A stretch of 64,000 nucleotides of DNA from an uncultured delta proteobacterium. Its GTDB lineage: Bacteria > Myxococcota > Myxococcia > Myxococcales > Myxococcaceae. The DNA lies in NCBI GenBank assembly GCA_963771175.1, contig CAVYSY010000038.1, positions 224,001 to 288,000 on the forward strand, written 5' to 3'. The notes under the pieces were generated by a model. That model did not search any database and was not told the origin of the DNA. It saw only the letters and a list, made by a program, of their open reading frames with translations. Positions 5,441 to 64,000 of the stretch are shown here, piece by piece. A program made the position numbers and the translations under genes. Each line of letters starts with the position of its first letter. The stretch's first letter is position 1.

Positions 5441-5638
5441 GTGCAGCCGGGCCGCCTCCGCCAGGCTCATGGACCCCCTCGCGTTCCGCCGCACAGGTTC
5501 TGTCGCGGAGTCAGACCGAGTCCCCAGGGTACCGCTCTCCCAGAGGAGGCGGGACGCACCCATCGAGTACCAGCCGGCCAAGGGTTGCGTTTCCGTCACC
5601 CGCTGCTTGCATCTGACCGAACAGGTGGGAAACTAGGG

Positions 5639-5787
5639 CTGCGCGCGTCCTCGGGGTTCGACCTTGGAGGGGTTTTGCACCCCGAGGACGCGCGCAGTCA
5701 CCAATCAGCCCGATTCCGCGGCATTTACCTTGGAGGGGTTCCTCCGCAGGAGCCGGGCTGCATGGGTGGAACAGGTGACATCCACCC
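5639..5787. ncRNA. Candidate structured RNA: three tandem hairpins, two with the identical loop motif ACCTTGGAGGGGTT
   Basis: 19-bp perfect inverted repeat 5639-5657/5679-5697; second stem 5706-5760; third stem 5764-5787; motif at 5661-5674 and 5727-5740. Confidence 0.5.
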
Positions 5788-5971
5788 GAAATTCGTGTTC
5801 GCGCGCCTGATAGGAGAAAATCAGGCAAAACGCCAGCCCCGCACGCGCGAAGCCATCAGCGTCGTAGAGGGCTTGCCATCAGTTCGCCTGATTCTGTCTG
5901 GGTAGCGCTATCAGCCTACATCATGGAAGCCTGTGTGCCCACCAGATTGTAGGTGGGCACACCTGGGCACC

Positions 5972-6226
5972 TCAACGCCGGCTCGACATCATCCGGCCCA
6001 GGGCCAGCAGCACGATGGCGCCGACGATGGCGCCGATGAAGCCGCTGGGATTCAACAGGCGCCAGTTCCCGCCCCGGAGCACCGAGGCGAGGAAGCCGCC
6101 CATGAAGGACCCGGCGATGCCGAGCAGCGTGGTCGAGATGAGGCCCATGCCCTGACGGCCGGGCATCACGGCGCGGGCAATCAGCCCCGCTATGAAACCA
6201 GAGATGATCCACATACACAGGCCCAT
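5972..6226 (-). CDS. GlsB/YeaQ/YmgE family stress-response membrane protein
   Basis: WIISGFIAGLIARAVMPG...LGIAGSFMGG...AIVGAIVLL; GGAGGG RBS before ATG 6226. Confidence 0.9.
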   Translation of the reverse strand: MGLCMWIISGFIAGLIARAVMPGRQGMGLISTTLLGIAGSFMGGFLASVLRGGNWRLLNPSGFIGAIVGAIVLLALGRMMSSRR

Positions 6227-6421
6227 CGAGCCCTCCGTGCTACCGCTGCTGGGGTGAGCCCCCAGTGTGCATGAAGTACGTCCCTGGACGAACTCCATTG
6301 CGAGAACGGCTCGGGGGGACGAGCGCTGTGAACGCGTTCACACCTTTGGCGTGAACCGGTTCGTACTCCCAGCCTGGGAGACATGGTCGGCTCGGGTCCA
6401 GAAATTCCCGAGAACGCAGCC

Positions 6422-6781
6422 ATGTCCGAACCCCTCATTGGAGAGATCCGCATGTTCGCCGGCGCCTTCGCCCCCCGCGGGTGGGCGCCCTGCGATGGCC
6501 GGCTCCTGTCCATCTCGCAGAACTCCGCGCTCTTCTCCGTCCTGGGCACCGCCTACGGTGGCGATGGCATGACCACCTTCGCCCTACCGGATCTGCGGGG
6601 CCGCGTGCCGCTCCACCCGGGGGTGGGTCCGGGCCTGACGCTCCGAGGCTCGCCGCACACCGCCTCGGACCTGCCGGCCGCCAGCGACACCACCGATCGC
6701 CGGCCGCTCGATGACCTGCGGCCATACACGCAGGTGAACTTCATCATCGCGCTCGACGGGTCCTTCCCCGCCCGGGGCTAG
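6422..6781 (+). CDS. Phage tail collar domain protein (microcystin-dependent protein-like)
   Basis: MSEPLIGEIRMFAG.FAPRGW..CDG.LL.I.QN.ALFS.LGT.YGGDG.TTFALPDLRGR. Confidence 0.85.
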   Translation: MSEPLIGEIRMFAGAFAPRGWAPCDGRLLSISQNSALFSVLGTAYGGDGMTTFALPDLRGRVPLHPGVGPGLTLRGSPHTASDLPAASDTTDRRPLDDLRPYTQVNFIIALDGSFPARG

Positions 6782-8122
6782 GACTGGCCCGCGGCCACCT
6801 CGCGCAGGCTGGCCTCCACTCCGGCGAGCAGCTCGTCCAGCGCGGCGTCCGGGATGTTGAGCGCGGGGGCCACGTACACCGTGTCCCCCAGCGGGCGCAG
6901 GTACAGCGCCGCGCCGCCGCGCCGCCTCGTACACGCGCCAGCCGCCGTGCGCCAGGTAGCCGCCGCCTCCCAGGTCCACCGCGCCCACCATGCCGAGGGC
7001 CCGCGGCCGCGTCAGCCCCGGGATCGTCCCGGCCATGCCGCTCGAAGGCGGCCTCAGATTCGCGGGCCTTGCGCGCCACCTGTCCCAGCACGTCCTCGTC
7101 CCGGTACACCGCGAGCACCTCGCGCGCCACCGCCGCGCCCAGCGGGTTCCCGCAGTACGAGTGCCCGTAGTACAGCGCCCGCTGCCTCGCCTCCGCGGAA
7201 GCCCGAGAACACCCGCTCGGTGGCCAGCGTCGCGGCGAAGGGCAACATGCCCTCCGGACAGCGCCTTCGCCAGGCACAGCAGGTCCGGCACCACCCCCGC
7301 CAGGTCGCACGCGAAGCGCGCCCCCGTGCGCCCCATGCCCGTGAAGACCTCGTCCGCGATGAGGAAGGTGTCCACCGCCCGCGTGGCCTCGCGCACCGCG
7401 CGCACGAACTCGGGCGGGTACATCTGCATGCCCGCCGCGCCCTGGATGCACGGGCTCGAGGATGACGGCGGCGATCTCGTCCGGGTGCTGCGCGCAGCGT
7501 GGCCTCCACCTGTGCGAAGGCGCGCTCCCAGCCCCCGTCCTCCGCCGGCGAGGGCACGTGCACCACGTCGAAGAGCAGCGGCCCGAAGATGTCGCGGAAC
7601 AGCGCCACCCCGCCCACGCTGGTGGCCCCGATGGTCTCGCCGTGGAAGGCGCCCGAGAGCGTGATGAAGCGCGTGCGCCTGGGGCGGCCGTTCTGCGCCC
7701 AGTACTGCGCGGCCATCTTGATGGCCACCTCCACCGCCGTGCTCCCGTTGTCCGAGTAGAAGACGCGCGAGAGGCGCTCGCCCGGCCGGGAGGTCCGTGC
7801 GCTCGGCGCCCGGTGCCAGCGGGACGAGCTCCTGCGCGAGCCGCGCCGCCGGCTCGTGCGTCACGCCCGCGAGCGAGACGTGCGGGAAGGCGCCGGCCTG
7901 CTCGGTGAGCGCGCGCACCAGCCGCGGGTGCCGGTGCCCCAGCGTGGACACCCACCACGAGCCGTTGGCGTCCAGGTAGCGCGTGCCGTCCGCGTCGTAG
8001 AGGTACGGCCCCTCGGCGCGCACCACCACCAGCGGGTCCGTCTTCGCGATGTACTCGTCCATCGCGGTGTACGGGTGCCACACGTACCGCTTGTCCAACG
8101 CGACGATGTCCGCGCGCTCCAT
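6778..8122 (-). CDS. bioA: Adenosylmethionine-8-amino-7-oxononanoate aminotransferase (frameshifted)
   Basis: VWHPYT, DANGSWWV, EVAIKMA, FHGET, LIADEVFTGMGRTG, CLAKALSGG, GHSYCGNPL; TAG stop at 6778. Confidence 0.9.
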
Positions 8123-8273
8123 GGTCGTTGCTCCTCCCGATGCGCGGCCCTCCCTACCACGCTCTGCCCGAGCCCCAACACTCGTGCGTGGACGAGACTC
8201 TCCGGGCTGGCGTGTCCCGCCTCGGGAACGCTAGAGAGACGGCTCCTCGCGTCGAGACAGCTTCCTCTCTGAC

Positions 8274-8687
8274 ATGGGCAAGAGCTTGAACCGAAAGCAC
8301 CCCTCCCTCCCGCTGGCGCGCACCGCGCTCCTGACGATGCCCCTGGCCCTCTTCGCCTGCTCGGACAAGTCCGAGCAGAAGGAGCCTGCCTCGCCCTCCT
8401 CCGCCACCGCGCAAGGCAGCCCGCCACAGGCCAAAGCCGCGCGGCCCCCGGAGCAGCTCTACTCCGACCTCGGGTGCAAGACCTGCCATGGGCCGGGCAG
8501 CGCCTACGCCGCCTCGCTCGCCAACGCTCGCGGCAAATCGGCGGAAGTGGTCGCCATGTGGATCCTCGCTCCCCAGAAGATCCGTCCCGGGACGATGATG
8601 CCTGCCTACGCCGGCCGCATCTCCACGGCGGAAGCGCTCGCGCTCGCCAACTGGCTCAAGGCGGGCAACCCGGCTCCCTCCGAGTAG
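8274..8687 (+). CDS. Cytochrome c lipoprotein
   Basis: Lipobox LFAC, heme motif CKTCH, distal PGTMMP. Confidence 0.85.
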
Positions 8688-8712
8688 GGCTTGGGCGGCT
8701 TCGTGCGGGGCC

Positions 8713-8958
8713 GTGCTCATGCGGAGCCTCTTCCTGCACCGCTACGCCGCGCACCGCATGTACACCATGGGTCCGCGCACCGAGCGCGCCCTGCACCTGC
8801 TCACCTACCTGCTCCAGGGCTCCTCGTACCTGTCGCCGCGCGCGTACGCCATCCTCCACCGCCAGCACCACGCATACTCGGACACGGAGAAGGATCCGCA
8901 CTCGCCCCACTACTACCGGGACGAGCCCACCCACGTGGTGGAGGCCCAGACGGCCTAG
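8713..8958 (+). pseudogene. Acyl-CoA/fatty acid desaturase fragment
   Basis: His boxes HRYAAH and HRQHH, plus DTEKDPHSP; both ends missing. Confidence 0.7.
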
Positions 8959-9051
8959 CAACACCGGGGTGGGCGGCGGGATGATGAATAAGGAGGCGCC
9001 CCCTTCCGTCCGGGGGAGCCGCCTCCCGTTCTCTCCAGCGACCTCCCGCCC

Positions 9052-10659
9052 ATGCGTTTCCAGCTCCCGGTTTCTCGACTCTCCCCGCTGCTCGCACTCC
9101 TGGCGTTGAGCGGCTGCAACACCGCGTACCGGGAGGCCATGGCCCTCGCGCGAGACGCGGCGATCCGCGGTGACTTCCTGACCGCGGCCCGCGCCTATCG
9201 GGATGCCTGCACCGCCAAGCCCGAGGACGAGCTGGCCTGCACCCGCGTCCCCCTCTTCGCGGAGAAGGCCACGGCCCAGGCCATCGAGAGCGCCGCCCTT
9301 CCTGCGAGGCGGGTGACCTCGACCGGTGCATTCCTCCCCTCCTCGATGCCTGGGACCTCATCCCCAACCACCCCGAGCTCTCCGCGATGCTCGAGAAGGC
9401 CAGCCAGCTCCACATGGAGCGCTGCGCCCGATGGAGCCTGGACGGCCCGCTGAACGTGGCGGTCACCGGGCTCACGTGTCTCCAGTCGCGCGGCCGTCAG
9501 TTCCCCGTCCCGAGCTACCAGACACGCCTCGCCGAGAGCGCGAGCCGGGTCGCCTCGCGCTTCGTGGACCTCGCCCTCATCGCCCAGGGACAGAACCACG
9601 CGGGCGCCGCTACCGTGATGTGGTCCACGGCGCAGTGCCTCGCGCCCGGTGAGAACCTGGCCCCGCGCGTCGAGCGGACCCGCCAAGAGCTTCCTCGCCC
9701 AGAGCGCCATCCGCTGTCTCCATCCCGGGCCCGACGGCTCGATGTCGCCCCCGGTCGCTTCCGCGCTCTCGGGCGTGTGCGCGTACCTGGCCTCGGGACT
9801 GCCGCCCTGGGCGCGGTGCGCGAGTCCCGAATCGCTGCCCGGCGAGCCCGAGCCGCTCCAGCTCCAGGTGGACGCGGTCATCCAGATGCCCGCGAAGACC
9901 CGCACCGAGCACAAGAAAACCGTGCGCTATGTCAGCGGCAGGGAGGAGGCCGCGGAATCCCGACTACGACACCGCCGAGGAGAACTTCTCGCTCGCCGAG
10001 AGCGAGCTGCGGAGTGCCCGGGAGAAGGAGAAGGAGAAGGACGCCGAGTGCGAGAAAGGCCCAGGAAAAGCACGAGGCCACCTGCGTCACCTGCCCCACG
10101 CCCAAGTCCCCGTGCGAGGAGGCCCGGGAGGCCGCCACGGACGAGAGCGATGCCCGGAACGCGCGCGATCTGGCGAGCAAGACGCTGAACAACACCCCCG
10201 CCACGGTGCTCGTGGACGTCTACGACGACTTCACGTAGTCGGTGTGGACGCACCGTTGGACGTCGGGCTTCCGCTTCACGCTCCAGGCGAGCACGCCCTC
10301 CTCCACTCCCGACCAGAAGGTGGGCGGAGATGCGCTTCGAGGACGGGGAGCACGTGGGCTTCGGGCCCGCGGGGCTCGTGGCGGATCCACTGGTGGTGCC
10401 TCCTCCGCAGGCGTACGCGGACATCCTCCTCCAGCAACTCGCGCCCCATGTGTTCGCGGCGGTGAAGCGGGACGCCGAGGCCCGAGGGGCCGTGCGCGGA
10501 GCCCAGTGCGGCGCGCTCCCAGCGGACGGGAACGTCTCCTGGGTGCAGTGCTGGGCCGAGGCCGCGCTCTGGAAGAACGGGCAGGAGCCCCAGCCCACCG
10601 AGCTCCTCCAACTCCTCGCCACCAGCGTCGACGCGCCCGCACAACCCCTGTGCCGCTGA
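9052..10659 (+). CDS. Hypothetical Cys-rich lipoprotein (frameshifted)
   Basis: Lipobox LSGC; protein-like segments continue through ORFs starting 9052, 9387, 9649, 9929 and 10330. Confidence 0.6.
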
Positions 10660-10898
10660 GCCAGGGTGCGCGGCCCCATGAAGTCCCTGCTCATTGGCGG
10701 ATCGACGGTCGTTCCGACCCTCCTCGCTGTGCTTCCTACTGTTCCGCTCGGGGCTGCGCGCTCCCTTGGTGGCACCTCCCATATCGGGAGAAAATTCCCC
10801 AAACGTTCCGGGGGCTTGAGACGCGTCTCCGGCCCGGCCGAAGGGAGAGGAGGGGTACGCACGGCGAGCGTCCCGGGACCGCGTTAAGAAGGTCTCCC

Positions 10899-12073
10899 GT
10901 GGCCGCCGACTCTCCCCTCCGCCTCCGCCTCCTCGAGTCCATCACCGACGTCCCCGCCTCGGCCTGGGACGCGCTCGCTGGACCCGAGGCCCCTCCCTTC
11001 ATCCGCCATGCGTGGCTCGCCGCCATGGAGGAGAGTGGCAGTGCCCGGCTGGAGACCGGCTGGGAGCCCCAGCACCTCACGCTCTGGCGTGGGAAGCAGC
11101 TCGTCGCCGCCTCGCCCGCCTATCGCAAGCACCACAGCATGGGCGAGTACATCTACGACTTCGCCTGGGCCAGCGCCGCCGAGCGGCTCGGCATCGAGTA
11201 CTACCCCAAGCTGGTCGTCGGCGCCCCGCTCTCCCCCGCCACCAGCCCGCGCTTCCTCATCGCCGCCGGGGAGGACGTCGCCCGCGCTCCGCAAGGCGCT
11301 GCTCCAGGCCGCCATCGAGAGCGCGCGCGAGGAGCGGTTGCTCCTCCGTCCACGTCCTCTACCCCCGCGAGGACGAGGCGGACCTGCTGGAGGAGGACGG
11401 GCTCGCGCGCCGCATCACCCTGCAGTTCCACTGGAAGAACCCGGGCTATCGCGGCTACGACGACTACCTGGCCCGCTTCGACTCCAAGCGCCGCTCGCAG
11501 ATCAAGCGCGAGCGCGCCGCCGCGGCCTCCCAGGGCATCGTCATCCGCACCGTGCGCGGCCAGGAGCTGGGCCCCGAGCACGCCCGGCGTGCCTACGGCT
11601 TCTACGAGGCCACCTGCGAGAGCCGGGGGCCCTGGGGTCAGGTGCAGCTCAACCGGGACTTCTTCGAGCGCGCCTTCCGCGCGTTGCCGGAGACGGTGGA
11701 GCTGGTCCAGGCCGAGCGCGGCGGCAAGGTCATCGCCGGGGCCTTCAACCTCGCCACCCCCAAGCGCCTCTACGGCCGCTACTGGGGCTGCTTCGAGGAG
11801 CACCCCTTCCTGCACTTCCACGTGTGCCTGTACCACTCGGTGGACGAGTGCATCCAGACCGGGCGCAAGGTGTTCGAGCCCGGCGCGGGCGGGGAGCACA
11901 AGATCGCCCGCGGCTTCGAGCCCACCGCCGTGCACAGCGCGCACCTGCTCTTCGACAGGACGCTCGACAAGGCCGTGCGTGACTTCCTCCGCCGCGAGCA
12001 CGCCCACCTGCGCCCCGCCATCGAGCAGGCCGAGCAGCTCGCCGGCCTCAAGCCCTGGCCCCTCCCGGAATAG
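10899..12073 (+). CDS. FemAB-like GNAT family protein (DUF482-type), frameshifted
   Basis: PFIRHAWLAAMEESG, HSMGEYIYDFAWA, YYPKL, LYGRYWG, LHFHVCLY, FEPGAGGEHKIARGF. Confidence 0.88.
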
Positions 12074-51020: not shown

Positions 51021-53460
51021 TCACTCGCTCCTGATGGCGATGATGGGGTCCACGCGCGAGGCCCGGCGCGCGGGCATCCACGTGGCCAGCAGGGCGATGA
51101 TGCCCAGCAGCAGCGCGAGCGAGCCGAAGGTGAGCGGATCCCTCGTGCTCACCCCATAGAGGAGGCTCTCCATGAAGCGCGACAGGCCGAAAGCCCCGGC
51201 GAGCCCGGCGCCCACGCCCAGGGCGGCCAGCAGCGCCCCCTGGCGCATCACCAGCTTCACGACGTCCGAGGGCTGCGCGCCCAGGGCCATCCGGATGCCG
51301 AGCTCTCGCGTGCGCTGGGAGACGGTGTAGGAGATGACGCCGTAGAGGCCCGCGGTGGCGAGCACCAGGGCGATGACGGCGAAGGCTCCCAGCAGCACCA
51401 GGTTCATCCGGCGCGCCACCATGGAGCGCGAGATGATCTCCTCCATGGTGAACACCTCGGCGATGGCCAGCTCCGAGTCCACGGACTTCACCGCCGCCCG
51501 CAGCGCGGAGGCGCCGGCCGTCGAATCCACCGTCGTCCTCACCACCAGGAACACGTCCTGGAGACCAAAGGGGTTGGCCCCGGCCTGGTTGTAGGGCAGG
51601 TCGATCTCCGGGACAGGCTTCCGGTCCAACCCACCCTGGCGCACGTCGCCCACCACGCCGATGACGGTGGCGGACTGCCTCATGAACGTCAGCCGCCGGC
51701 CCACCGCTTCGCCCTGGCCGAAGTGCCGCTGGGCCAACGCCTGGTTGATGATGACCACGAGCTCCCCCTGGCCATCCTGCTCGGTGAATTCGCGCCCGGC
51801 CAGCAAGGGAATCCCCATGGCCTTGATGAGGCCCGGACTCAGGGCGCGGAACTCCGCCATTGGATCCTTCCCCGGTTCGGGCTCCGGCTCCCCCTCGACG
51901 GTGTAGCTGGTGGTGAGGGACCCTGGATGGATGGGGAGCAGCGAGGTGAGCCCCACGGACTGCACGCCGGGCTGAGAGCGCAACTGCTCCAGGACGGGCT
52001 GGAAGACGCGCTGGGGGGCCTCCGCGAGCGGGTACTTGTAGGTGGGCACCGACATGCGGGCGGTGAGCACACCGCGCGCGTCGAAGCCCGGCGCCTCGTT
52101 GAGCAGGGTGATGAAGCCACGCATCATCAGCCCGGCGCCCACCAGGAGGATGAGCGACAGGGCCAGCTCACCCACCACGAGCCCACCACGGAAGCGGTGT
52201 TGCGCCCGCGACGACGAGGCCTTCGTCCCGGACCCGCCGAGGCTGGCGCGCAGGTCGGTGCGAGTGACCTGCAGCGCCGGGAAGAGCCCGAAGAGCACCG
52301 AGCTGCCCGCGGCCACCAGCAGCAGCAGGCCGAAGACGTTGCCCCGCAGCGAGATGTCGCCGAGCAGCGGCAACGAGCGCGACACCAGGCCCTCCAGCGC
52401 ACTCACGCCCCAGGCCGCCAGGAGCGCTCCGAGCACCGCGCCCGCCAGCGACAGCACCAGGCTCTCCACGAGCATCTGCCGGATGAGGCGGGACCGGCTC
52501 GCGCCAAGCGCAGCCGGACGGCCATCTCCTTGCGGCGCGCGGCCCCCTGGGCGAGCAGGAGGTTGGCCACGTTGGCACAGGCGATGAGCAGCACGAGCAG
52601 CACCGTGCCCTGGAGGATGAGCAGCACGGGCCGCACCTTCCCCATCACCGTCTCCGTGAGCGGCACGGCCGTGGCGCTGCGCCCGGCCAGGTCGTTCGGG
52701 TAGGCCTCCTGCAGACGGGTGACGAGCTGGCGCAGCTCGGTGTTGGTGGCCTCGAGGCTCACCCCGGACTTGAGCCGGCCGATGACGTTCAGGAAGCGCG
52801 AGCCCCGGGCCTCGGCGTTCGGGCCCGTGACGGAGAGGGGGATGAACAGGTCCATCTGCGTCTGCGTGCCCGCGGGGAACTGGACCGCGGTCGGCAGCAC
52901 GCCGATGACCGTGTAGGGCAGCCCATCCAGCGTCAGGCTCTGGCCGAGCAGCGCGGGGTTCTCGCCGAAGCGCCGCTTCCAAAGCCCCTCGCTCACCACC
53001 ACCACGGGCGCGCTGCCGGGGGCATCCTCTCCCGGGGAGAAGCCACGGCCGAGCCGCGGCTCCACGCCGAGCACCTGGAAGAGATTGGCGGAGACCTCGG
53101 CGACGCGCAGCCGCTCGGTGCCCTCGCTCCGCCCAGGTTACGGCTCTTGAGGGTGTAGGTGGCGAGGCCTTCGAGGCTCTGGAGCTGCTGCGCCCAGTCC
53201 CGGACGTTGGGCCAGGAGGCGGACTCGCGCAGGTTGGGATCTCTCTGGGGCACCGTCTCGAAGAGGCGCACGAGCCGCTCCGGCTCCGCGTACGGCAGCG
53301 GGCGCAGGAGCGTGGCGTCCACCACGCTGAAGATGGCCGCGTTGGCGCCGATTCCCAGGGCCAGGCACAGCACCGCCACCGTGGTGAAGCCCGGGCTCTT
53401 GCCCAGCCTGCGCAACGCGAAGCGGACATCCCGGCTCAGGTCATCCATCCAGCTCGTCAT
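51021..53460 (-). CDS. Duplicated MacB/FtsX-type ABC permease (frameshifted)
   Basis: [54 protein letters not shown]. Confidence 0.9.
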
Positions 53461-53550
53461 TCCACGCACCCCTTGGGCAGGACCCACCATGGCCTCGGTC
53501 CTCTCCGGACATGCCGGGCAGCTCGATGGAGCAAGGCCTTCAGCAGCCTA

Positions 53551-53895
53551 CTACGTGTTGCGCTCCAGCTCCGCGCAGGTCTCGGCCGTGCCGGCGCACG
53601 GCACGGTGTCGAGCTGCCTGAGGCGCTCCAGCTCCGCGCAGGCCTCGGGCGTGCCGGCGCACGGCTCGGTGGTGCCGAGCTGCTTGTTGCGCTCCAGCTC
53701 CGCGCAGGCCTCGGGCGTGCCAGCGCACGGCTCGGTGGTGCCGAGCTGCTTGTTGCGCTCCAGCTCCGCGCAGGCCTCGGGCGTGCCGGCGCACGGCTCG
53801 GTGGTGGACTCCGACGTCACGAGCTCCTCCGGACCACAGCCCGTGGCGAGGACCGTCAATCCCAGGGTGGCAAGCAGCAGGCACGGCTTGAGCAT
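53551..53895 (-). CDS. Lipoprotein with four 22-aa Cys-pair repeats
   Basis: MLKPCLLLATLGLTVLATGC lipobox; GGAGAG RBS; repeat unit TTEPCAGTPEACAELERNKQLG. Confidence 0.8.
   Translation of the reverse strand: MLKPCLLLATLGLTVLATGCGPEELVTSESTTEPCAGTPEACAELERNKQLGTTEPCAGTPEACAELERNKQLGTTEPCAGTPEACAELERLRQLDTVPCAGTAETCAELERNT
53554..53806. repeat. 66-bp coding tandem repeat, about four copies
   Basis: GGCCTCGGGCGTGCC recurs at 53641, 53707 and 53773; a diverged fourth copy lies near 53575. Confidence 0.95.
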
Positions 53896-53978
53896 GTGCA
53901 TCTCTCCGGTGAGGGTACGAAGGGTCTGAAGCACTATCATCCAGCAATTCAGGGAAAATTGGAATGAAAGGGGGAGTC

Positions 53979-56106
<2,128 letters not shown>

Positions 56107-56127
56107 GGTGAGCACGTGCGGCGAAGT

Positions 56128-56658
56128 CTACTCGCGGAGGAGATGGACGAGGTACTTCCGGGGGGGCGTCCACACCTGCACCTTGAGCGGCAACGGCGCG
56201 GAAGGGGCCGGGAGGGCGGGGTCGGGGGCGAGCAACACCTGGAGGCAGGACGCCTGCTCCGGGGGCGAGGAGGCCTGCAAGAAGGCCCGGGACTCGCGGC
56301 TGCACGGGCCGGTGGAGAGCTTGGAGATCACCCCCCGCGAGCGCTCCGCCGAGCCCGCGAAGCGGAACTCGAGCGTATCGCCGGGACGCAGGTGCTCGGC
56401 GGCCGTCGGCTCCAGGGAGAGCTCGAGCCCCTGACCCCGCGCGGGGGCGTCTTCCACCAGGGCGACGAACATCGGCTGGAAGTCGAGCCGTGACAGCGCG
56501 AAGCCAAGGAGCGCCATGAGGAGCAGGGGGACCAAGGTCACCAGCCGCAGCGACAGCGGACGCAGCAGGCTGATCTCCCCGAGGTGACGCACTCGGCGGT
56601 GGTTGAGCGCCTCGTACCTGAAGAGAGGCCGGCCTTGAACGGGGGGCTCGGGTTTCAT
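56128..56658 (-). CDS. Short HlyD/CvaA-like accessory protein
   Basis: LFRYEAL...GEISLLRP plus TM segment as in CvaA-type N-termini; no coiled-coil hairpin. Confidence 0.65.
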   Translation of the reverse strand: MKPEPPVQGRPLFRYEALNHRRVRHLGEISLLRPLSLRLVTLVPLLLMALLGFALSRLDFQPMFVALVEDAPARGQGLELSLEPTAAEHLRPGDTLEFRFAGSAERSRGVISKLSTGPCSRESRAFLQASSPPEQASCLQVLLAPDPALPAPSAPLPLKVQVWTPPRKYLVHLLRE

Positions 56659-56700
56659 GATCGTCACCAATCCGTGGGCAAGCGCCGGCCCCCCGACGGC

Positions 56701-57855
56701 TCAGGCACCCTGTGCCGTCAGCCGGGCACGCAGAGGACGGGAGAGGGCAAGGCCCAGCTCGCTCAGCCCCACCTCGCTCTCGATGGGGACGCGCAGTTGT
56801 TCCATGTACGCGACAATCGTGCTCTGGCGGCTGGAGATCTCCTTCTGAAGCCCCATGGCGCGGAACTTCTCGAAGGCGATGAGCGCGTTGCCGAAGGCAT
56901 GATAGCCGATGAGGATCCGGTCGAGGGGGCGCTCGCACTTCTTGAGGGGCGAGTAATGCGGCCTGGCCTCGGGCGTCACGAACGAACCGACCCAGCTCGC
57001 CATGTGGAAGTACTGGTGCGAGCACTCGTGAATCATCATCTCCGCCGTCTCCGTGGGCGTGGCCGGCACGCACAGGTCGATGCCGCCGAAGCGGCGCGGC
57101 GAGGAGCCGCTGGCGATCATGTTCCAGTCCGGACGGCGGATGGGAGTGATCTCCTTGAGCAGACAGAGGACCCAGGCGCGATACTCCGGCATGGCCCGGC
57201 CCATCAGCTCCAGGGCCTCCTCGAACTGGGCGACCGCTCCCTGATTCACGACCGCCGCGGGCTGGCTGAGCTCATCCAGAAAGGTCGTGTGCCACTCGGC
57301 ACCCACCACGCGGATGGTGGGCTGACCGTCGACCCGGACGAACGAGGACTCCGTGCCGGCTTCAGCCCACACGGGGCTGCCGTTGCGCTGGGCGATGACC
57401 GAGAACGACCGGGGGGCGGTAGCGCCCTCGGCCTGGATCGTCATCCGGTCGGCTCCACCCCGGATGGAGAGACGCGCGGCGGGGACGAGCTGGCCGGCCA
57501 CGAAGAGAGGCGCGTTCGTCTCGACGTCGAGCTCGAGCTCGGAGGTCACTCCCGTCACGTGCGCGCTGAGGGAAATCTGGGCCCGGAGCCAGTTCCAGTC
57601 GCCCTCCGTGAAGGCCTGCTTCGACAGGCCGTTGAAGATGATCGCCACCTCCGGCGTCCAGTAGGCCGTGTTCGCCCCCCGCTGGGCGAGCCGCTGGGCG
57701 ATGTCGGCGAGCCGGGCGTCCTGGCTGTAGCCGTGCTGCTCGGCGAGGCGAATCGCCCGGCGACAGAAGACCCGGAACTGGTTGGTGGCAAGCTCGGCCG
57801 TCAGGGCGGCGTAATCGCCCTCGAAAGGATTGGACAGTCGGTTGAAGATTTCCAT
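56701..57855 (-). CDS. aKG-HExxH family peptide-modifying enzyme
   Basis: SGSS...FGGI, EMMIHECSHQ, YSPLKKCERPL..ILIGYHAF. Confidence 0.85.
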   Translation of the reverse strand: MEIFNRLSNPFEGDYAALTAELATNQFRVFCRRAIRLAEQHGYSQDARLADIAQRLAQRGANTAYWTPEVAIIFNGLSKQAFTEGDWNWLRAQISLSAHVTGVTSELELDVETNAPLFVAGQLVPAARLSIRGGADRMTIQAEGATAPRSFSVIAQRNGSPVWAEAGTESSFVRVDGQPTIRVVGAEWHTTFLDELSQPAAVVNQGAVAQFEEALELMGRAMPEYRAWVLCLLKEITPIRRPDWNMIASGSSPRRFGGIDLCVPATPTETAEMMIHECSHQYFHMASWVGSFVTPEARPHYSPLKKCERPLDRILIGYHAFGNALIAFEKFRAMGLQKEISSRQSTIVAYMEQLRVPIESEVGLSELGLALSRPLRARLTAQGA

Positions 57856-57859
57856 GGGC

Positions 57860-59170
57860 TCACTCGATGACGGGCAGTTCCATTGAATTGGCTTCGGGAA
57901 TCTGAATCTCGGCGGGAGCCGCGCCCAGGGTCACGGGCCGCAGGAAGTCCCGGGCCCAGAACTCGGGCTTGCGCGAGAGCACCTGCGACAGGCGCTCGAC
58001 GCCGTTCTCCCGCCTGGCCACGATGGCGGCGATCGCGGTGTGGATGGTGTCCAGCGTCTCGCAGAAGACCGAGGGTTGGTCGAAGCCGGACCCCTTCTGA
58101 TAGCGATTGAAGAGCTCTCCGGAGCGGCAGGTCCGGAACCAGTCGCAGCTCGCACACTTCTCGGGGGCCTTGTCGACGGCCCGCACGAGCTGCTGCCACA
58201 TGGGGCTGCCGAGGAACTGCGCGAGGGTGGTGTTGCGGACGTTGGTGTCCGCGTTGAAGAGCGCCTTGTCGAGCGCCATGATGTTGTCATCCATCCCGAG
58301 CTTGCCATCGCCGGAGATGGTGATGATGTGGTGGCGGGTGGAGCGCCTGAAGTCCATCCGCTGGGCGCCGGCGTCCGAGATCATCGCCGACATGATGTCG
58401 GAGAGGAGCTGGATGGTGACCAGCCGGCCGATCTTCTTGGGCGTCGTCTGCCAGTACTTGATGATCTCGGTGAAGTAGGCGACCCACTTGCTCTGGGGCT
58501 TCCAGACATCGCTGTCGTAGCCTTCTCGCGGCAGCAGGATGTTGAAGTTGTCGATGCCGAGATCCTCGACGAAGTGCCGGACGACCTCTTCTCCGCTGTG
58601 ATTGGGATTGGCCACGCAGAGGATGCCCGTGGCGCGGTTGCGCCCGGCACGCACCCCCTCCTGGAGCAAGCGCAGGCCCCTCACCGTGGCCTCGTAGCTC
58701 CCCTTCCCCTTATGATCGGGGCGGGCCGCGTCGTGGATGTGGGGCGGGCCATCCAGGCTCACTCCCGCGGCCACCTGGTGCTCGGCGAAGAGCGAGACCC
58801 ATTCCTGGTCGACTCGCGTCCCGTTCGTCTGGAGCCCGAGGTGGACGTTCGTCACATCCGAGAGCTCTTCGCGGAGGATGCGGCAGATGGCATCGAAGCG
58901 CTTCTTCGGCATCAGCAGGGGCTCGCCACCGTGCAGGCCGATGTAGAGGTGCTGGATGTCCATCTCCTGCACACCGCGGCGTAGGAACGCGGCGACGTCT
59001 CGGATCGTGGCCTCGGAGATCAGGGCGGGACTGCTCTTGTAGAGATCGTTTTCCTGAAAAAAGTAATAACAGTACGGGCACGCCAGGTTGCACCGCTCCG
59101 CTATCTTGAGGACCACGTCCAGACAATTGGCCCACTCTCGAGGTTCTCTGCGCATCCTCGCCTCACTCAT
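57860..59170 (-). CDS. Radical SAM/SPASM peptide maturase, triceptide (cyclophane-forming) type
   Basis: KIAERCNLACPYCYYF, HGGEPL, QTNG, SLDGP, DGKLGMDD, C-x2-C-x5-C-x21-C. Confidence 0.88.
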   Translation of the reverse strand: MSEARMRREPREWANCLDVVLKIAERCNLACPYCYYFFQENDLYKSSPALISEATIRDVAAFLRRGVQEMDIQHLYIGLHGGEPLLMPKKRFDAICRILREELSDVTNVHLGLQTNGTRVDQEWVSLFAEHQVAAGVSLDGPPHIHDAARPDHKGKGSYEATVRGLRLLQEGVRAGRNRATGILCVANPNHSGEEVVRHFVEDLGIDNFNILLPREGYDSDVWKPQSKWVAYFTEIIKYWQTTPKKIGRLVTIQLLSDIMSAMISDAGAQRMDFRRSTRHHIITISGDGKLGMDDNIMALDKALFNADTNVRNTTLAQFLGSPMWQQLVRAVDKAPEKCASCDWFRTCRSGELFNRYQKGSGFDQPSVFCETLDTIHTAIAAIVARRENGVERLSQVLSRKPEFWARDFLRPVTLGAAPAEIQIPEANSMELPVIE

Positions 59171-59185
59171 CCTGGGTTGCGGTGC

Positions 59186-59232
59186 AAAAAGCGGCCAGCC
59201 GCCGCGGGGTTGAGTCCACTGCGTCTGGCCGC
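59186..59232 (-). terminator. Hairpin plus U-tract between precursor and maturase
   Basis: GCGGCCAG (59191-59198) pairs with CTGGCCGC (59225-59232); AAAAA at 59186-59190 reads as U5 on the minus strand. Confidence 0.65.
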
Positions 59233-59248
59233 CTACAGCGAACGACTA

Positions 59249-59464
59249 CTACTCCATCTGCTCCAGCTCCTTACCGAGCGAGCCGTGCGCGGAGCCGTGG
59301 CCGGAGAGGTGGCCCGAGGCGTGCGCGGCGGCGGCGCTCACCGCATCCAGGTGCACGTCCATGAGCTCCACCAGCTCCTGGTCCGCGACGACCAGGTTCT
59401 TCTCCGAGGCGCCATCGAGCTTCGCCTTCAGACGGTCCGCCAGGGTCGAGAGGTTGTTATCCAT
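59249..59464 (-). CDS. RiPP precursor peptide with four HxS motifs
   Basis: AAGGAGG RBS; leader ...ELMDVHLDAVSAA; core AAHASGHLSGHGSAHGSLGKELEQME; directly upstream of the rSAM gene. Confidence 0.85.
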   Translation of the reverse strand: MDNNLSTLADRLKAKLDGASEKNLVVADQELVELMDVHLDAVSAAAAHASGHLSGHGSAHGSLGKELEQME

Positions 59465-59999
59465 ATCGCTTCCTCCTTGGTGTGGCTGTGTGTGGGGGGT
59501 GCGGCGACAACATCACCGTCTCCAAGGTCATCAACGCGATTTCCCTGAAGAAGATGACTAACATTAAACTTTGCAAGTCATTCAGCCTGCTTGTCAAGTG
59601 CCTAAGAAAAAATAACACACACCTGGAATGTCGACTATTCGGCAGTTCCGGCTTGACAAGTCGCACGGAATGAGGGCTAAGGCTCCGCGCGGCCCACCGC
59701 GTGGCTCCAGGCTTCGGACCCGCCGCCGCCGGTGGATGCGCGGTACGCGAGCAAAGGCAGACACGGCAGCCCAGGGCCGCTTCCCCAGTCTACGTGCGCG
59801 CACTGCGACAGGGAAGGTGCCCCGGCTGGTGCGAGCCTTTGGCGAGGGCCGCTACTCCTGGCTCAGTCCCCAATCTGGACGAAAGTGAGCGCAGCCGCCG
59901 TCGCCGGGCGACACCCCGTCCCAGCAGGCCGACCGCTCCGCTTGCCTCCGGTGGCACCGTGACGCGCCGCGCTCCGGGCGCGCGGGAATCGGGGCAGGC

Positions 60000-60356
60000 T
60001 CAGTCTCGGGGGGGGGCGTCCGAGCCGGGCATCGGAATCTCCTCGCCCCGAAGGCGTCCTCGGAACACCGCGGCCCGCATCAGGAACAGGGTGGTGACCG
60101 GCGCGGTGAGCGCGATGAACACCGCGATGAGCAGCGCATGAAGGTAGAGCTGGCCGCGTTCGTAGGAGACCTGCACCGCCGTCGCGAGCGCGAAGCCCCA
60201 GGTGCCCAGCGTCGCGCCCAGGGTGGGCGCGTGGACGCGCTGGAAGAAGCTCCTCAGGCGCAGCACCCCGAACGAGCCGATCAGCGCCGCCAGCGCCCCC
60301 CCCACCACGAGCACCGCGGTCAGCGCATCCACCCACGGAGGAGTCCACCCGTTCAT
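60000..60356 (-). CDS. phaG: Mrp/Pha antiporter subunit G
   Basis: GSFGVLRLRSFFQRVHAPT, LTAPV. Confidence 0.9.
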   Translation of the reverse strand: MNGWTPPWVDALTAVLVVGGALAALIGSFGVLRLRSFFQRVHAPTLGATLGTWGFALATAVQVSYERGQLYLHALLIAVFIALTAPVTTLFLMRAAVFRGRLRGEEIPMPGSDAPPRD

Positions 60357-60631
60357 TCGATGACCTCCCCGCGCAGGAGGAACTTGGCCATCGCCGTGGA
60401 GCCCACGAACCCGAAGAGGGCGATCAAGAGCGCCGCCTCGAAGTAGGAGCTGCTGCGATAGACGAGCCCCAGCGCGAGGATGACCAGCATCGCGTTCAGG
60501 TACAGGCAGTCGAACGCCAACACGCGGTCCTCCGCCCTGGGCCCGACAATCATCCGTGCCAGCGCCAGCACCATCGCGAGGGCAAGACAGCCAAGGGCGA
60601 ATGCCAGCGACCAGGAGAGCAGAGGGCTCAT
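60353..60631 (-). CDS. phaF: Mrp/Pha antiporter subunit F
   Basis: GPRAEDRVLAFD, FGFVGSTAMAKFLLRGEVIE. Confidence 0.9.
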   Translation of the reverse strand: MSPLLSWSLAFALGCLALAMVLALARMIVGPRAEDRVLAFDCLYLNAMLVILALGLVYRSSSYFEAALLIALFGFVGSTAMAKFLLRGEVIE

Positions 60632-61115
60632 TCGAAGATCTCCCTGAGCGGACGCTCGTAGTGATGCTTGATGAAGGTCACCAGGTTCGTCTCGCTCTGA
60701 ATGGCGAGCACGTGCAGCAGCAGGACGCGGTTGTCCGCCGACAACTGCGCCCAGGCGGTGCCCGGCGTGAACGTGACGATCATCGCCAGCACGGCCAATC
60801 CGTTCGGATCCTTCAGCTCGAGCGGAATGAGCACGAAGCCGGAGCGGATGTCGCGCGAGCGCTGGGTGAGAATCGCCCACGCCACCTCGGCGTTCGACCG
60901 CAGCATCTCGAGCACCACCCGGCAGAACAGGCGAGCCAGGAGGAGGGGCCTGCGCAACCGCACGGGGGTGGGCCGAGCCCGACGGTCACCGCGGGCCAGA
61001 ACAGCGCCAGGGCGGCGCCCAGCACCAGCGTCCCCGCGTCCAACGACTGCATGAGGAGAATCCAGAGCAGGAGCAGCGCCACCGAGAGCGCGGGAGAAGG
61101 AAGGAGCCGCCTCAT
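60628..61115 (-). CDS. phaE: Mrp/Pha antiporter subunit E (frameshifted)
   Basis: IVTFTPGT, LLLHVL, YERPLREIFE. Confidence 0.88.
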
Positions 61116-62755
61116 CGCCCCGCCTCCGGCGCCGTGGCGGGCGGCCGCACCTCTGCTCCGAGGACCGCGTCGATGTACCCGCGGCGGTCATAGAGGGACT
61201 GGGCCGTTGCGCGCGCGAGCTCCATCGCGGGTCCCGCCGCGAGCGTCAGCACTCCGCACGCGGTGAGGAGCACCACCAGGGACAAGCCCTCCGGCGCCCG
61301 GACCCGAGGGGGCTCGCGCTGCATCTCGGACCAGAAGGTCCGGATTCCCGTCCGCGTGAGCGCGATGAGGGTGAGCAGGCCGCAGCCCAGGAGCACCGCC
61401 GGTGAACAGCCATGCACGGGCGGAGACTGGCCCGCTCCTCCCGGGCGACCCGAGCGCCGCCGACAACATGCCGAGCTTGCCGATGAAGGTGGACAGCGGA
61501 GGCAGGCCGGAGATGAGCAGTGCGCACGCGATGAAGGCCAGGCCCAACAGCGCGGTGGAGGCGGGGAACGGCAGGGCGACGAGCGGCTCCTCCTCGTCGT
61601 CGAGGTTGACCTCCTGCGTCTCGAGCGTCGCGCTCAAGAAGGGCGCCTCGTCCACCACGGTCGCACCCGCACGCCACCGCTCGACGAGGTCGACGAGCAG
61701 GAAGAAGGCGCTGGAGGCCAGCGTGGAGCTCACCAGGTAGAACACCGCGCGGCCGAGGACGGCTTCCTCGCCCAGGCCCAGCGCCGCCAGGAGCGTCCCG
61801 GCGGAGACCATCACCCCCGCCGCCGCCTGGACCGCGAGCCTCTGCGAGGCGATCATCCCCAGGGCCGCGAACACCGCGGAGACCACTCCGAACGCGAGCA
61901 GCCCGTCCGAGCCGAACCCCGCCAGCGGCCCCCCGGCGAACATCAGCGTCCAGAGCCGCACCAGGGCGTAGACGCCGACCTTCGTGAGCACCGCGAACAT
62001 CGCCGCCACCGGCGGAGTCGCCGACGCATAGGCGGGGACGAGCCAGAAGTTGAGCGGCCAGGCCGCCGCCTTGGCCAGGAACGCCACCGCGAGGATGGCC
62101 GCTCCCGCGTCGATGAGGTGCCGGTTGGCCACATTCTCCTGGGACAGGCGCGCGGAGAGCTCCGCCATGTTGAGCGTCCCGGTGACGCCGTAGATCATCG
62201 ACACGCCGATGAGGAAGAGCGACGAGGCGGCGAGGTTCACCGCCACGTAGTGCAGGCCCGCGCGGACCCGCGACTTTCCGGAGCCATGCAGCAACAGGCC
62301 GTACGAGGCGGCGAGGAGAATCTCGAAGAAGACGAAGAGGTTGAAGACGTCCGCCGTCAGGAACGCGCCGGAGAGCCCCATGAGCTGCAGCTGGAAGATG
62401 GGGTGGAAGTGAACGCCCGCGCGGTGCCAGCGCGTGAAGGCGAAGGAGAGCGCGCAGGTGCCCAGGATCCAGGTCAGCACCAACATCCCCGCCGACAGCC
62501 GGTCCACCGCGAGGGCGATCCCGAACGGCGCGGGCCAGTTGCCGGGCAGGTAGGCCACGACGCCGTATTCGTTCACCCACGCCGAGCAGCACCACCGAGA
62601 CGGCGAGTCCCAGGAGCGCGGAGATCATCCCCATCAGCAGCTTCGCCGGGCGGCGCCCCTCGCCCAGGAGGAGCATCACCGCCGCGGTCAGCATCGGCAG
62701 GAGGATGGGCGCCACCATCAGGTGGGGCATCAGGGCCTTGGATGAGCGCGCTCAT
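61112..62755 (-). CDS. phaD: Mrp/Pha antiporter subunit D (frameshifted)
   Basis: GNWPAPFGI, DVFNLFVFFEILL, TKVGVY, GLPPLS. Confidence 0.9.
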
Positions 62756-63094
62756 GGCTCGGTGCCGTCCACGTGATCCGTCCCGGTCATCCCGCGCGAG
62801 GCCAGGATGATGACCAGGAGGAGCGCCGTCATCGCGAAGCTGATGACGATGGCCGTCAGCACGAGCGCCTGCGGCACCGGGTCCGTGTAGTGCGCGAGAT
62901 CCGGCGGGACGCCGTCCACGAGGATGGGCTCCTTGTCGATGGCCAGGCCGCCAATGCTGAAGATGAAGAGGTTGACCGCGTAGGAGAGCAGCGACAGGCC
63001 GACGACCAGCTGGAACGTGCGCGGGCCGCAGCAGCAGCCAGACGCCAGAGCCGGTCAGGATGCCGATAGCGATCGCGAGCACCACCTCCATCAA
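62752..63094 (-). CDS. phaC: Mrp/Pha antiporter subunit C (frameshifted)
   Basis: GVWLLLRP; shifted frame DPVPQALVLTAIVISF...DHVDG. Confidence 0.88.
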
Positions 63095-64000
63095 TCACCT
63101 CCCGAGGCCCGGTGCGCGCGGATGCGACTGGTGCGCGAGCGCCACGAGGATGAGCAGCGTGGCGCCCAGCACCAGGCAGAACACGCCCAGGTCGAAGAAC
63201 ACCGCGCTCCCAAGGTGGAGCTCGCCCAGCACCGGCACGTTCAGATGGAAGGTGTGCGAGGTGAGCAGCGGGTACCCGACCACGAACGACTCCCGACGGC
63301 CGTGCCGAGCACGAACAGGAGGCCGACCGCCATCATCGCGCGCGGCGCGAGGTCGCAGCCGCTCCTCGACCCACTCGGTCCCGGACACGAGGTACTGCAG
63401 CAGGAAGCCCACCGACATCACCAGCCCCGCGACGAACCCACCGCCCGGCGCGTTGTGCCCACGCAGGAAGAAGAACACCGCCACCACTCCCGACACGGGC
63501 AGGAGCAGCCGGATCAGCACCGCGGGGACCTCAGGTACCCCACCGCGGTGTCTCTGCGCCTGGCGCGGGTTCACCAGGTCCGTCTGCAGGTCCGCCGGCA
63601 GCGCGCTGCTGCTGCGGCGGAAGCGCCATCACCTCGGTCGCCGGCCGGAAGCGGCGCAGGAGCGCGTAGACGGTGAGCGCGACGAGCACCAGCACCACGC
63701 CCTCGCCGAAGGTGTCGAACCCGCGGAAGTCCACCAGCATCACGTTCACCACGTTCCGCCCGCCTCCGCCGCTCAGCGCGTGCTCGAGGAAGAAGGAGGT
63801 CCGCTCGGGGAGCTCGCGCGTCATCACCGCGTAGGCCAGCACCGCCATCCCGCAACCGGCGCCCAGCGCGATGAGGAAGTCGCGGGCTCGCCGGCCCCGG
63901 GCGATCCGCAGGGTGTGCGCGTCGTAGACGCCGCGCGCCGGCTCTCGCGGCGGCAGCCACCGGAGCCCGAGCAGGATGAGCAGCGTCGTCACCACCTCGA
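63095..64000 (-). CDS. phaA: Mrp/Pha antiporter subunit A/B, 3' part (frameshifted; 5' end outside the window)
   Basis: GGRNVVNVMLVDFRGFDTFGE, RGHNAPGGGFVAGL, FFDLGVF. Confidence 0.9.

Follow-up and report, generated by a model that had tools for sequence, protein, structure and literature searches.

Radical SAM (rSAM) enzymes that close three-residue cyclophanes on histidine have been described before. HaaB, HtkB and YhhB form rings from His-C2 to C-beta on the motifs HAA, HTK and HNR, and rSAM cyclophane synthases make C-C, C-N and C-O links, as described in PMC11499958, according to which the 2022 triceptide landscape catalogued about 3,900 pathways. A ring on a His-x-Ser motif has been reported for minviopeptin (MicA/MicB), in which NMR placed a bond between His5-C2 and Ser7-Cbeta of an HAS motif that stands in a YSK-I-HAS spacing and is followed by Gly (PMC12912966). 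MicB, the maker of this one published His-x-Ser ring, was found with a PasB (daropeptide) query, according to the same paper, and it is therefore not obviously of the same clade as the rSAM described below. The aKG-HExxH enzymes treated in PMC12636437 hydroxylate His and Asp only once the cyclophane has been installed, and PflC and PosC also cut the backbone oxidatively, leaving an amide. The His-cross-linked RiPP noursin binds copper only when cross-linked, as stated in PMC10206099.

The locus described here lies in a window of 64,000 nucleotides, which is the whole stretch of DNA that was analysed. On the minus strand it encodes, in this order, a precursor peptide, an rSAM, an aKG-HExxH oxygenase, a short HlyD-like protein and a C39-peptidase ABC exporter. 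These five genes form a tight operon, the successive gaps measuring 78, 4, 30 and 12 bp. Similarly to minviopeptin, the precursor has the His-Ser motif HAS followed by Gly, with predicted rings one residue apart, and the removal of the C-terminal part of the minviopeptin peptide after ring formation is counted as a further likeness; the ring chemistry is known in minviopeptin. However, in the published description MicA has one His motif among YSK/HAS/FTK, whereas this precursor has four uniform HxS motifs, and the two enzymes are likened by description. The accessory genes also differ, an ADP-ribosyltransferase and a DSBH-fold aKG enzyme being described for MicA/MicB and an HExxH-fold oxygenase and a C39 exporter being present here; the described minviopeptin host belongs to Bacteroidota, while the relatives of this locus are myxobacterial. 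With the triceptide maturases XyeB, YhhB, FxsB/ChlB, HaaB and HtkB the locus has in common a homologous rSAM and aromatic-x-x motifs after the leader, with His accepted in the aromatic position. Ring position 3 is occupied by Ala, Arg or Lys in HAA, HNR and HTK and by Ser at this locus, where the core is a pure HxS array; the comparison with the HaaA/HtkA enzymes is one by description only.

The locus pairs an rSAM homologous to 3-CyFE with an adjacent precursor that carries C-terminal His-X-X motifs, the combination by which triceptides are recognised in silico, and as a prediction it is assigned to them. The precursor most likely represents an uncharacterised family within this known class, for which the ring chemistry and both enzyme families have already been described. 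The literature searches turned up no publication that deals with a tandem-HxS triceptide or with the operon, and J Am Chem Soc 2022, 144, 11580 may list the family.

The precursor peptide and its relatives

The precursor gene (59249..59464, minus strand, ATG start) encodes 71 aa, as read from the ORF and its homologues. It comprises a leader of residues 1-45 (59330-59464), a core of residues 46-62 with four HxS motifs (59279-59329) and the tail LGKELEQME with the stop codon (59249-59278), all on the minus strand. The ORF translation ends in ...LDAVSAAAAHASGHLSGHGSAHGSLGKELEQME, an end also given as ...ELMDVHLDAVSAAAAHASGHLSGHGSAHGSLGKELEQME. The motifs occupy residues 48-50, 52-54, 56-58 and 60-62, at a spacing of exactly 4, in the order HASG-HLSG-HGSA-HGSL before the acidic tail, and the whole peptide contains 5 His and 7 Ser but lacks Trp, Tyr and Phe. 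An earlier note on this DNA, made from the letters alone, had claimed four His-x-Ser motifs at exact 4-residue spacing with an acidic tail, as well as the lack of Trp, Tyr and Phe; the translation and the composition count bear out both claims.

Shuffling the whole precursor 200,000 times, and its last 28 residues alone another 200,000 times, never produced four HxS motifs in register; three in register came up 2 and 9 times, respectively. A second H.S.H.S was sought in the six-frame translation of the window (127,996 residues), and none was found besides the precursor. Chance is excluded as the origin of the pattern. The ORF also looks like a real gene, because its GC by codon position (0.74/0.36/0.93) has the high third-position value of its operon neighbors (0.88-0.94), because a Shine-Dalgarno-like AAGGAGG read from the sequence lies 7 nt before the ATG (59472..59478, minus strand), and because it has 13 homologues. 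The opposite-strand ORF that overlaps it has codon-position GC values of 0.77/0.51/0.68. No domain model of Pfam or NCBIfam matched the precursor.

The 13 homologues, 65-97 aa long and additional to the window's own precursor, were obtained by a word search, with Archangium and Corallococcus as the named sources. When 1.84 billion representative proteins were searched with a profile, 27 matched at E <= 1e-3, and the 25 short ones among them were taken. P0159, a repetitive protein of 326 aa with six weak matches, was dropped from all precursor counts as unrelated. H52, S54, H56, S58, H60 and S62 are invariant in the 14 sequences made up of the word-search homologues and the window's precursor. 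An alignment of 36 sequences shows conservation of at least 90% at L34, L39, H48, S50, H52 and S54. Gly64 is near-invariant. Two or more HxS motifs occur in 38 of the 39 short family members; when the 4-residue register is required, 37 have at least two and 24 at least three. The earlier note had proposed conservation of HxS among homologues as a check, and the motif is kept in the register counts just given.

The cores of the family consist purely of HxS units, 2-6 in tandem, and contain no further aromatic residues. The acidic tail, of the form G-[KRQ]-[EQ]-..., is restricted to the closest, myxobacterial relatives, and many other relatives end 2-4 residues past the last HxS. Seven members (P0013, P0136, P0138, P0140, P0142, P0146 and P0160) carry Cys at the spacer position, as in HGSCHGSC... 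and HISCH..., or in the tail, which hints at extra cross-links or disulfides in these peptides.

A core with four imidazoles, an acidic tail and no other aromatic residue would also suit a His-rich stretch that chiefly binds metal, either as the unmodified peptide or as a ringed product that acts as a metallophore and not as an antibiotic, and noursin, as described in PMC10206099, offers a precedent for copper binding that depends on His cross-links. This explanation is considered improbable. Ser is as strictly conserved as His, for which metal binding alone gives no explanation, an unmodified metal binder would have no use for a conserved leader together with an rSAM, an oxygenase and a peptidase-exporter, and no metal-uptake gene was seen among the neighbors checked, namely a MacB-like permease and Mrp antiporter subunits. 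Metal binding is possible as the role of the mature ringed product, and in that form it is compatible with the triceptide reading.

Tandem His-x-Ser repeats and dependence on an rSAM are also common to this locus and the HXS antiphage system, whose effector HxsA is matured by an rSAM and has five HxS repeats (PMC13128918). Kinship with that system is nevertheless regarded as extremely improbable. The HxsB model gives the rSAM 71.4 bits against a cut-off of 370, and the operon has one rSAM in place of an HxsB/HxsC pair, has no HxsD, and has a C39 exporter and an HExxH enzyme instead of the HXS partners. The precursor has 71 aa and no peptidoglycan-binding domain, whereas residues of HxsA are mapped up to 214, and 99.7% of HXS systems are placed in Pseudomonadota (both as given in PMC13128918). 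PADLOC returned only generic rSAM-core matches to pVip. The published system also differs in its product, a periplasmic effector with +8 Da on SHRSS as described in PMC13128918, while leader cleavage and ABC export are predicted here.

The radical SAM enzyme and the HExxH oxygenase

The second gene (57860..59170, minus strand) encodes a radical SAM / SPASM-type peptide maturase of 436 aa, identified by NCBIfam models, a PDB sequence match and Cys motifs. Its best NCBIfam scores are to XyeB (292.7 bits, E 3e-87; curated cut-off 450), YhhB (217.2 bits; cut-off 445) and FxsB (199 bits; cut-off 370), all three of them cyclophane-forming maturases, and the GrrM model gives 111.8 bits (cut-off 310). 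Because the protein falls below the cut-offs of all characterized subfamilies, its specificity is extrapolated, and membership in the named subfamilies XyeB, YhhB, FxsB or GrrM was rejected, every curated NCBIfam cut-off being missed. Assignment as an anaerobic sulfatase maturase was likewise rejected, the TIGR03942 score being 134.1 bits against a cut-off of 349.45. The best PDB sequence match is the rSAM domain of ChlB (9gm3, E 1.3e-29), with anSME (4k37, E 2.2e-22) behind it. The CX3CX2C motif lies at C27/C31/C34 and C-terminal Cys residues at 339/342/348/370, all of them invariant in 20 homologues; outside CX3CX2C the protein has six Cys only, fewer than a full two-cluster SPASM domain. 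Together, the scores and motifs support a three-residue-cyclophane (triceptide) type of enzyme as the predicted identity.

A residue that sets specificity at ring position 3 has been given as D214 in HtkB and H204 in HaaB and equated with D196 of anSME in a supplement legend of PMC11499958. When it was mapped through the anSME alignment, without the HtkB and HaaB sequences, the position fell in an invariant LLPREG stretch of this rSAM.

The same homologies leave room for a substrate peptide on which the rSAM performs another HxS chemistry, such as conversion of Ser to formylglycine, a C-N or C-O link, or attachment at another carbon. The enzyme is also homologous to the anaerobic sulfatase maturase (134 bits with TIGR03942; PDB 4k37, E 2.2e-22), which abstracts H from the C-beta of Ser or Cys; it misses all triceptide equivalog cut-offs, and synthases of all three link types are reported in PMC11499958. 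Since formylglycine formation is also a change of -2 Da and isobaric with ring closure, mass alone cannot separate it from a cyclophane. These other chemistries are nonetheless judged unlikely, for the cyclophane models outscore the anSME model (292.7 vs 134 bits), the strict pairing and register of His and Ser in 37 of 39 relatives is what a two-residue cross-link predicts and a Ser-only modification does not, and a C2-Cbeta ring on HAS is documented in PMC12912966. The cyclophane-forming role is therefore preferred for this rSAM as a prediction.

The third gene (56701..57855, minus strand) encodes a stand-alone aKG-HExxH-type oxygenase of 384 aa with HECSH at residue 276, identified through TIGR04267 and Foldseek. 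It scores 65.7 bits with TIGR04267, above the cut-off of 40, and H276, E277 and H280 are invariant in 31 sequences. Its AlphaFold model (pLDDT 91.8) matches SjiH (22ob) over the whole length in Foldseek, with E 6.7e-13 and TM 0.62/0.59, and also the HExxH domain of ChlBH (8s5f) over the whole length, with E 1.4e-9. By score, HExxH motif and modeled fold, the protein is predicted to belong to the aKG-HExxH peptide oxygenase family (TIGR04267 / IPR026337). It resembles ChlH (ChlBH) and SjiH in TIGR04267 membership, HExxH motif, fold and the position of its gene next to a cyclophane rSAM; however, in ChlBH the HExxH part is fused to the rSAM, and here it is a separate gene. PflC and PosC, in contrast, cleave at an ARMD motif, and ARMD is absent from this precursor. 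The oxygenase had been missed by the earlier note, and its presence in the operon predicts modifications additional to the rings.

Predicted leader cleavage and export, and operon context

The exporter gene (53979..56115, minus strand) encodes a C39-peptidase / ABC exporter (PCAT), identified by Pfam, NCBIfam and alignment. Its C39 domain matches PF03412 with E 1.3e-32, and the catalytic Cys, His and Asp align with those of LahT150 and PCAT1 (6mpz, 4ry2). The earlier note had read the end of the leader as a double-glycine pattern with Ala-Ala in place of Gly-Gly. With the cut placed after A45, V42 falls at -4, L39 at -7 and L34 at -12, as that note had it, and L31 additionally falls at -15. 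A hydrophobic spacing of -4/-7/-12/-15 fits the double-glycine leader consensus. In the leader column of 39 sequences, L-D-x-V-S is followed by AA in 17, GA in 12, GG in 6, AG in 1 and AS in 1, and 2 are unmatched by the pattern. The GG and GA variants in the AA column, together with the hydrophobic residues at -4, -7, -12 and -15, support cleavage of the double-glycine type, and with the C39 triad aligned AA is a plausible replacement for GG. The run AAAA at this site makes the exact cut ambiguous between the first and the second Ala pair, after A45 or after A47. The aligned C39 residues and the leader hydrophobics at -4/-7/-12/-15 are common to this locus and to export of the LahT, PCAT1 and ComA type, from which the locus differs in having Ala-Ala at -2/-1 and a frame-broken transporter gene.

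The exporter gene is not intact as read, since no single frame runs across the ATPase domain. It does not stay open past about residue 640 but breaks within a CG run near 54205-54220, immediately downstream of the LSGGQ signature (54150-54290, minus strand), and the remaining ATPase part (Walker B/H-loop) lies in another frame, in the ORF 53979..54269. As judged from the reading frames, the break would reflect either a pseudogene or an assembly indel. If the former, the cluster would be decaying in this genome, with the exporter a pseudogene and no mature product made. This is held to be rather unlikely, the other operon genes being intact and GC3 staying at 0.88-0.94 with both exporter halves included, while one indel inside a CG run would also be a typical assembly error. 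Decay of the cluster is not exclusive of the triceptide identity of the peptide.

Between the exporter and oxygenase genes, a single-pass membrane protein of 180 aa is encoded (56128..56670, minus strand). It gave no match to Pfam or NCBIfam, and its language-model feature score of 0.96 to 'HlyD family secretion protein' clusters (Atlas) is taken as a lead only, on which it may be a short HlyD-like export accessory. Directly after the exporter lies an ORF of 116 aa (53551-53901, minus strand) with a lipoprotein-like signal (…LATGC), a third-position GC of 0.96 and 3.8 tandem copies of a 66-bp unit that encodes a Cys-pair repeat (…TEPCAGTPEACAELER…), without a Pfam family; it may serve the cluster in immunity or as an accessory protein. 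The flanks at 51021-53429 and 60000-64000 (minus strand) encode a MacB/FtsX-type permease and Mrp/Mnh Na+/H+ antiporter subunits, which appear unrelated to the peptide operon.

A terminator-like site, a GC-rich hairpin followed by UUUUU (59186..59234, minus strand), lies in the gap that separates the precursor stop from the start of the rSAM gene. Its centroid energy of -34.1 kcal/mol (z -1.48) is ordinary for such GC content, and 3 terminator-like sites were found in the region against 2.9 expected. The hairpin may be a partial or leaky terminator or an attenuator, which would raise the ratio of precursor to enzymes. A consensus promoter scan around the precursor called no complete sigma-70-type promoter, and a search upstream of the precursor gene for inverted repeats of 8 nt or longer found none. 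A perfect TTGACA is present at 59592-59597, in an AT-richer stretch (59540-59620, minus strand) upstream of the precursor. Rfam matched no family over 53000-60500.

Linkage in other genomes and the proposed pathway

Genome contigs were scanned with the rSAM alignment, which yielded at least 80 loci, all at no more than 45% identity, the scan favoring generic rSAM motifs. At one of them (L001), in a Verrucomicrobia MAG (5591-11775), the rSAM is 45% identical to that of the window. The ORF upstream of it encodes 62 aa ending in ...IAAAHLDIHNSAHQSVPSPN (also given as ...EMIAAAHLDIHNSAHQSVPSPN), with the core HLD-I-HNS-A-HQS, and downstream of this precursor ORF lie the rSAM, an HExxH protein (60.4 bits with TIGR04267) and a membrane protein of 188 aa, which is weakly similar to the window's 180-aa membrane protein (E 0.012) and occupies the equivalent gene position. 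After this module come a NodU-like carbamoyltransferase and an LpxO-like hydroxylase in place of the C39 exporter. The module of precursor, rSAM, HExxH protein and small membrane protein thus recurs in another phylum, the Verrucomicrobia. Among the loci listed, L001 is the only one in which an HxS-type small ORF adjoins the rSAM.

Separate HExxH ORFs lie downstream of the rSAM at L001, L002, L003, L006 and L008. Precursors at more distant loci carry true GG leaders, which end in ...VVGGG at L002, ...VSGG at L004 and ...ISGGG at L007, and these three precursors carry mixed Tyr/Trp/His/Phe motifs. At the distantly related loci L003 (3329-9766) and L006 (3766-8312), two or three separate HExxH-motif ORFs were seen around the rSAM. 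For closer relatives, with rSAM homologues 48-81% identical, for example in Haliangium ochraceum, Archangium and Corallococcus, linkage was assessed indirectly, through longest contigs of identical size. On this indirect measure, an rSAM partner was obtained for 15 of the 52 other HExxH homologues, one of these pairs being a whole chromosome that says nothing on proximity. Of 23 precursors, 6 were matched in this way, four to an rSAM homologue (6235, 9916, 4647 and 52968) and two to an HExxH homologue (1074519 and 4233).

The gene is probably that of a precursor of a triceptide-type RiPP, whose proposed maturation consists of ring formation by the rSAM, a step by the oxygenase, and cleavage and export by the C39 exporter. 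The earlier note had proposed His-to-Ser three-residue rings with C39 cleavage, and as a predicted reading this gains support from the HxS conservation, the cyclophane-type family of the rSAM, the published HAS ring and the GG/GA variants in the leader column. The rSAM would bind a helical leader and abstract H from the C-beta of Ser at position 3 of each H-x-S, and the Ser carbon radical would add to C2 of the His two residues upstream. Up to four consecutive imidazole cyclophanes could be formed in this way, each at -2 Da and in total -8 Da, with one small residue between them. Since aKG-HExxH enzymes act on pre-formed cyclophanes, beta-hydroxylation of ring His is expected next, and the stand-alone oxygenase would then oxidize the ring-bearing peptide, with His beta-hydroxylation, as by ChlH, the likeliest reaction; a less likely outcome would be oxidative loss of the acidic tail at Gly64, a conserved residue. 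The exporter's C39 domain would cut the leader after V-S-A-A, and the short HlyD-like protein would assist in exporting the product.

A further and speculative extension of this pathway, thought quite unlikely, would make the exported product a ribosomal metallophore of a new structural type, a 'ladder' of four His-Ser cyclophanes in which C2-alkylated imidazoles and hydroxyls added by the HExxH enzyme build a pre-organised metal site. The tail would then be a follower peptide that this enzyme cuts oxidatively at Gly64 to leave a C-terminal amide, and the repeats of the HXS effector would be matured by related His-Ser radical chemistry.

Since neither the class nor the ring chemistry nor either enzyme family is new, the gain for the field is incremental, and the triceptide reading, if true, would come as no surprise to a specialist, while the locus would be useful for genome mining, peptide engineering and work on enzyme specificity. 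It provides a clean test case for the acceptance of Ala-Ala in place of Gly-Gly by a C39 peptidase and for the choice of Ser at ring position 3 by the enzyme. If the reading is true, the stand-alone aKG-HExxH enzyme would act on a very simple core from which its substrate residue is legible, and the core itself would be a natural scaffold of up to four contiguous imidazole cyclophanes, or up to six in relatives. The triceptides would thereby gain a defined, conserved family of at least 39 short precursors with HxS-only cores in Myxococcota and Verrucomicrobiota.
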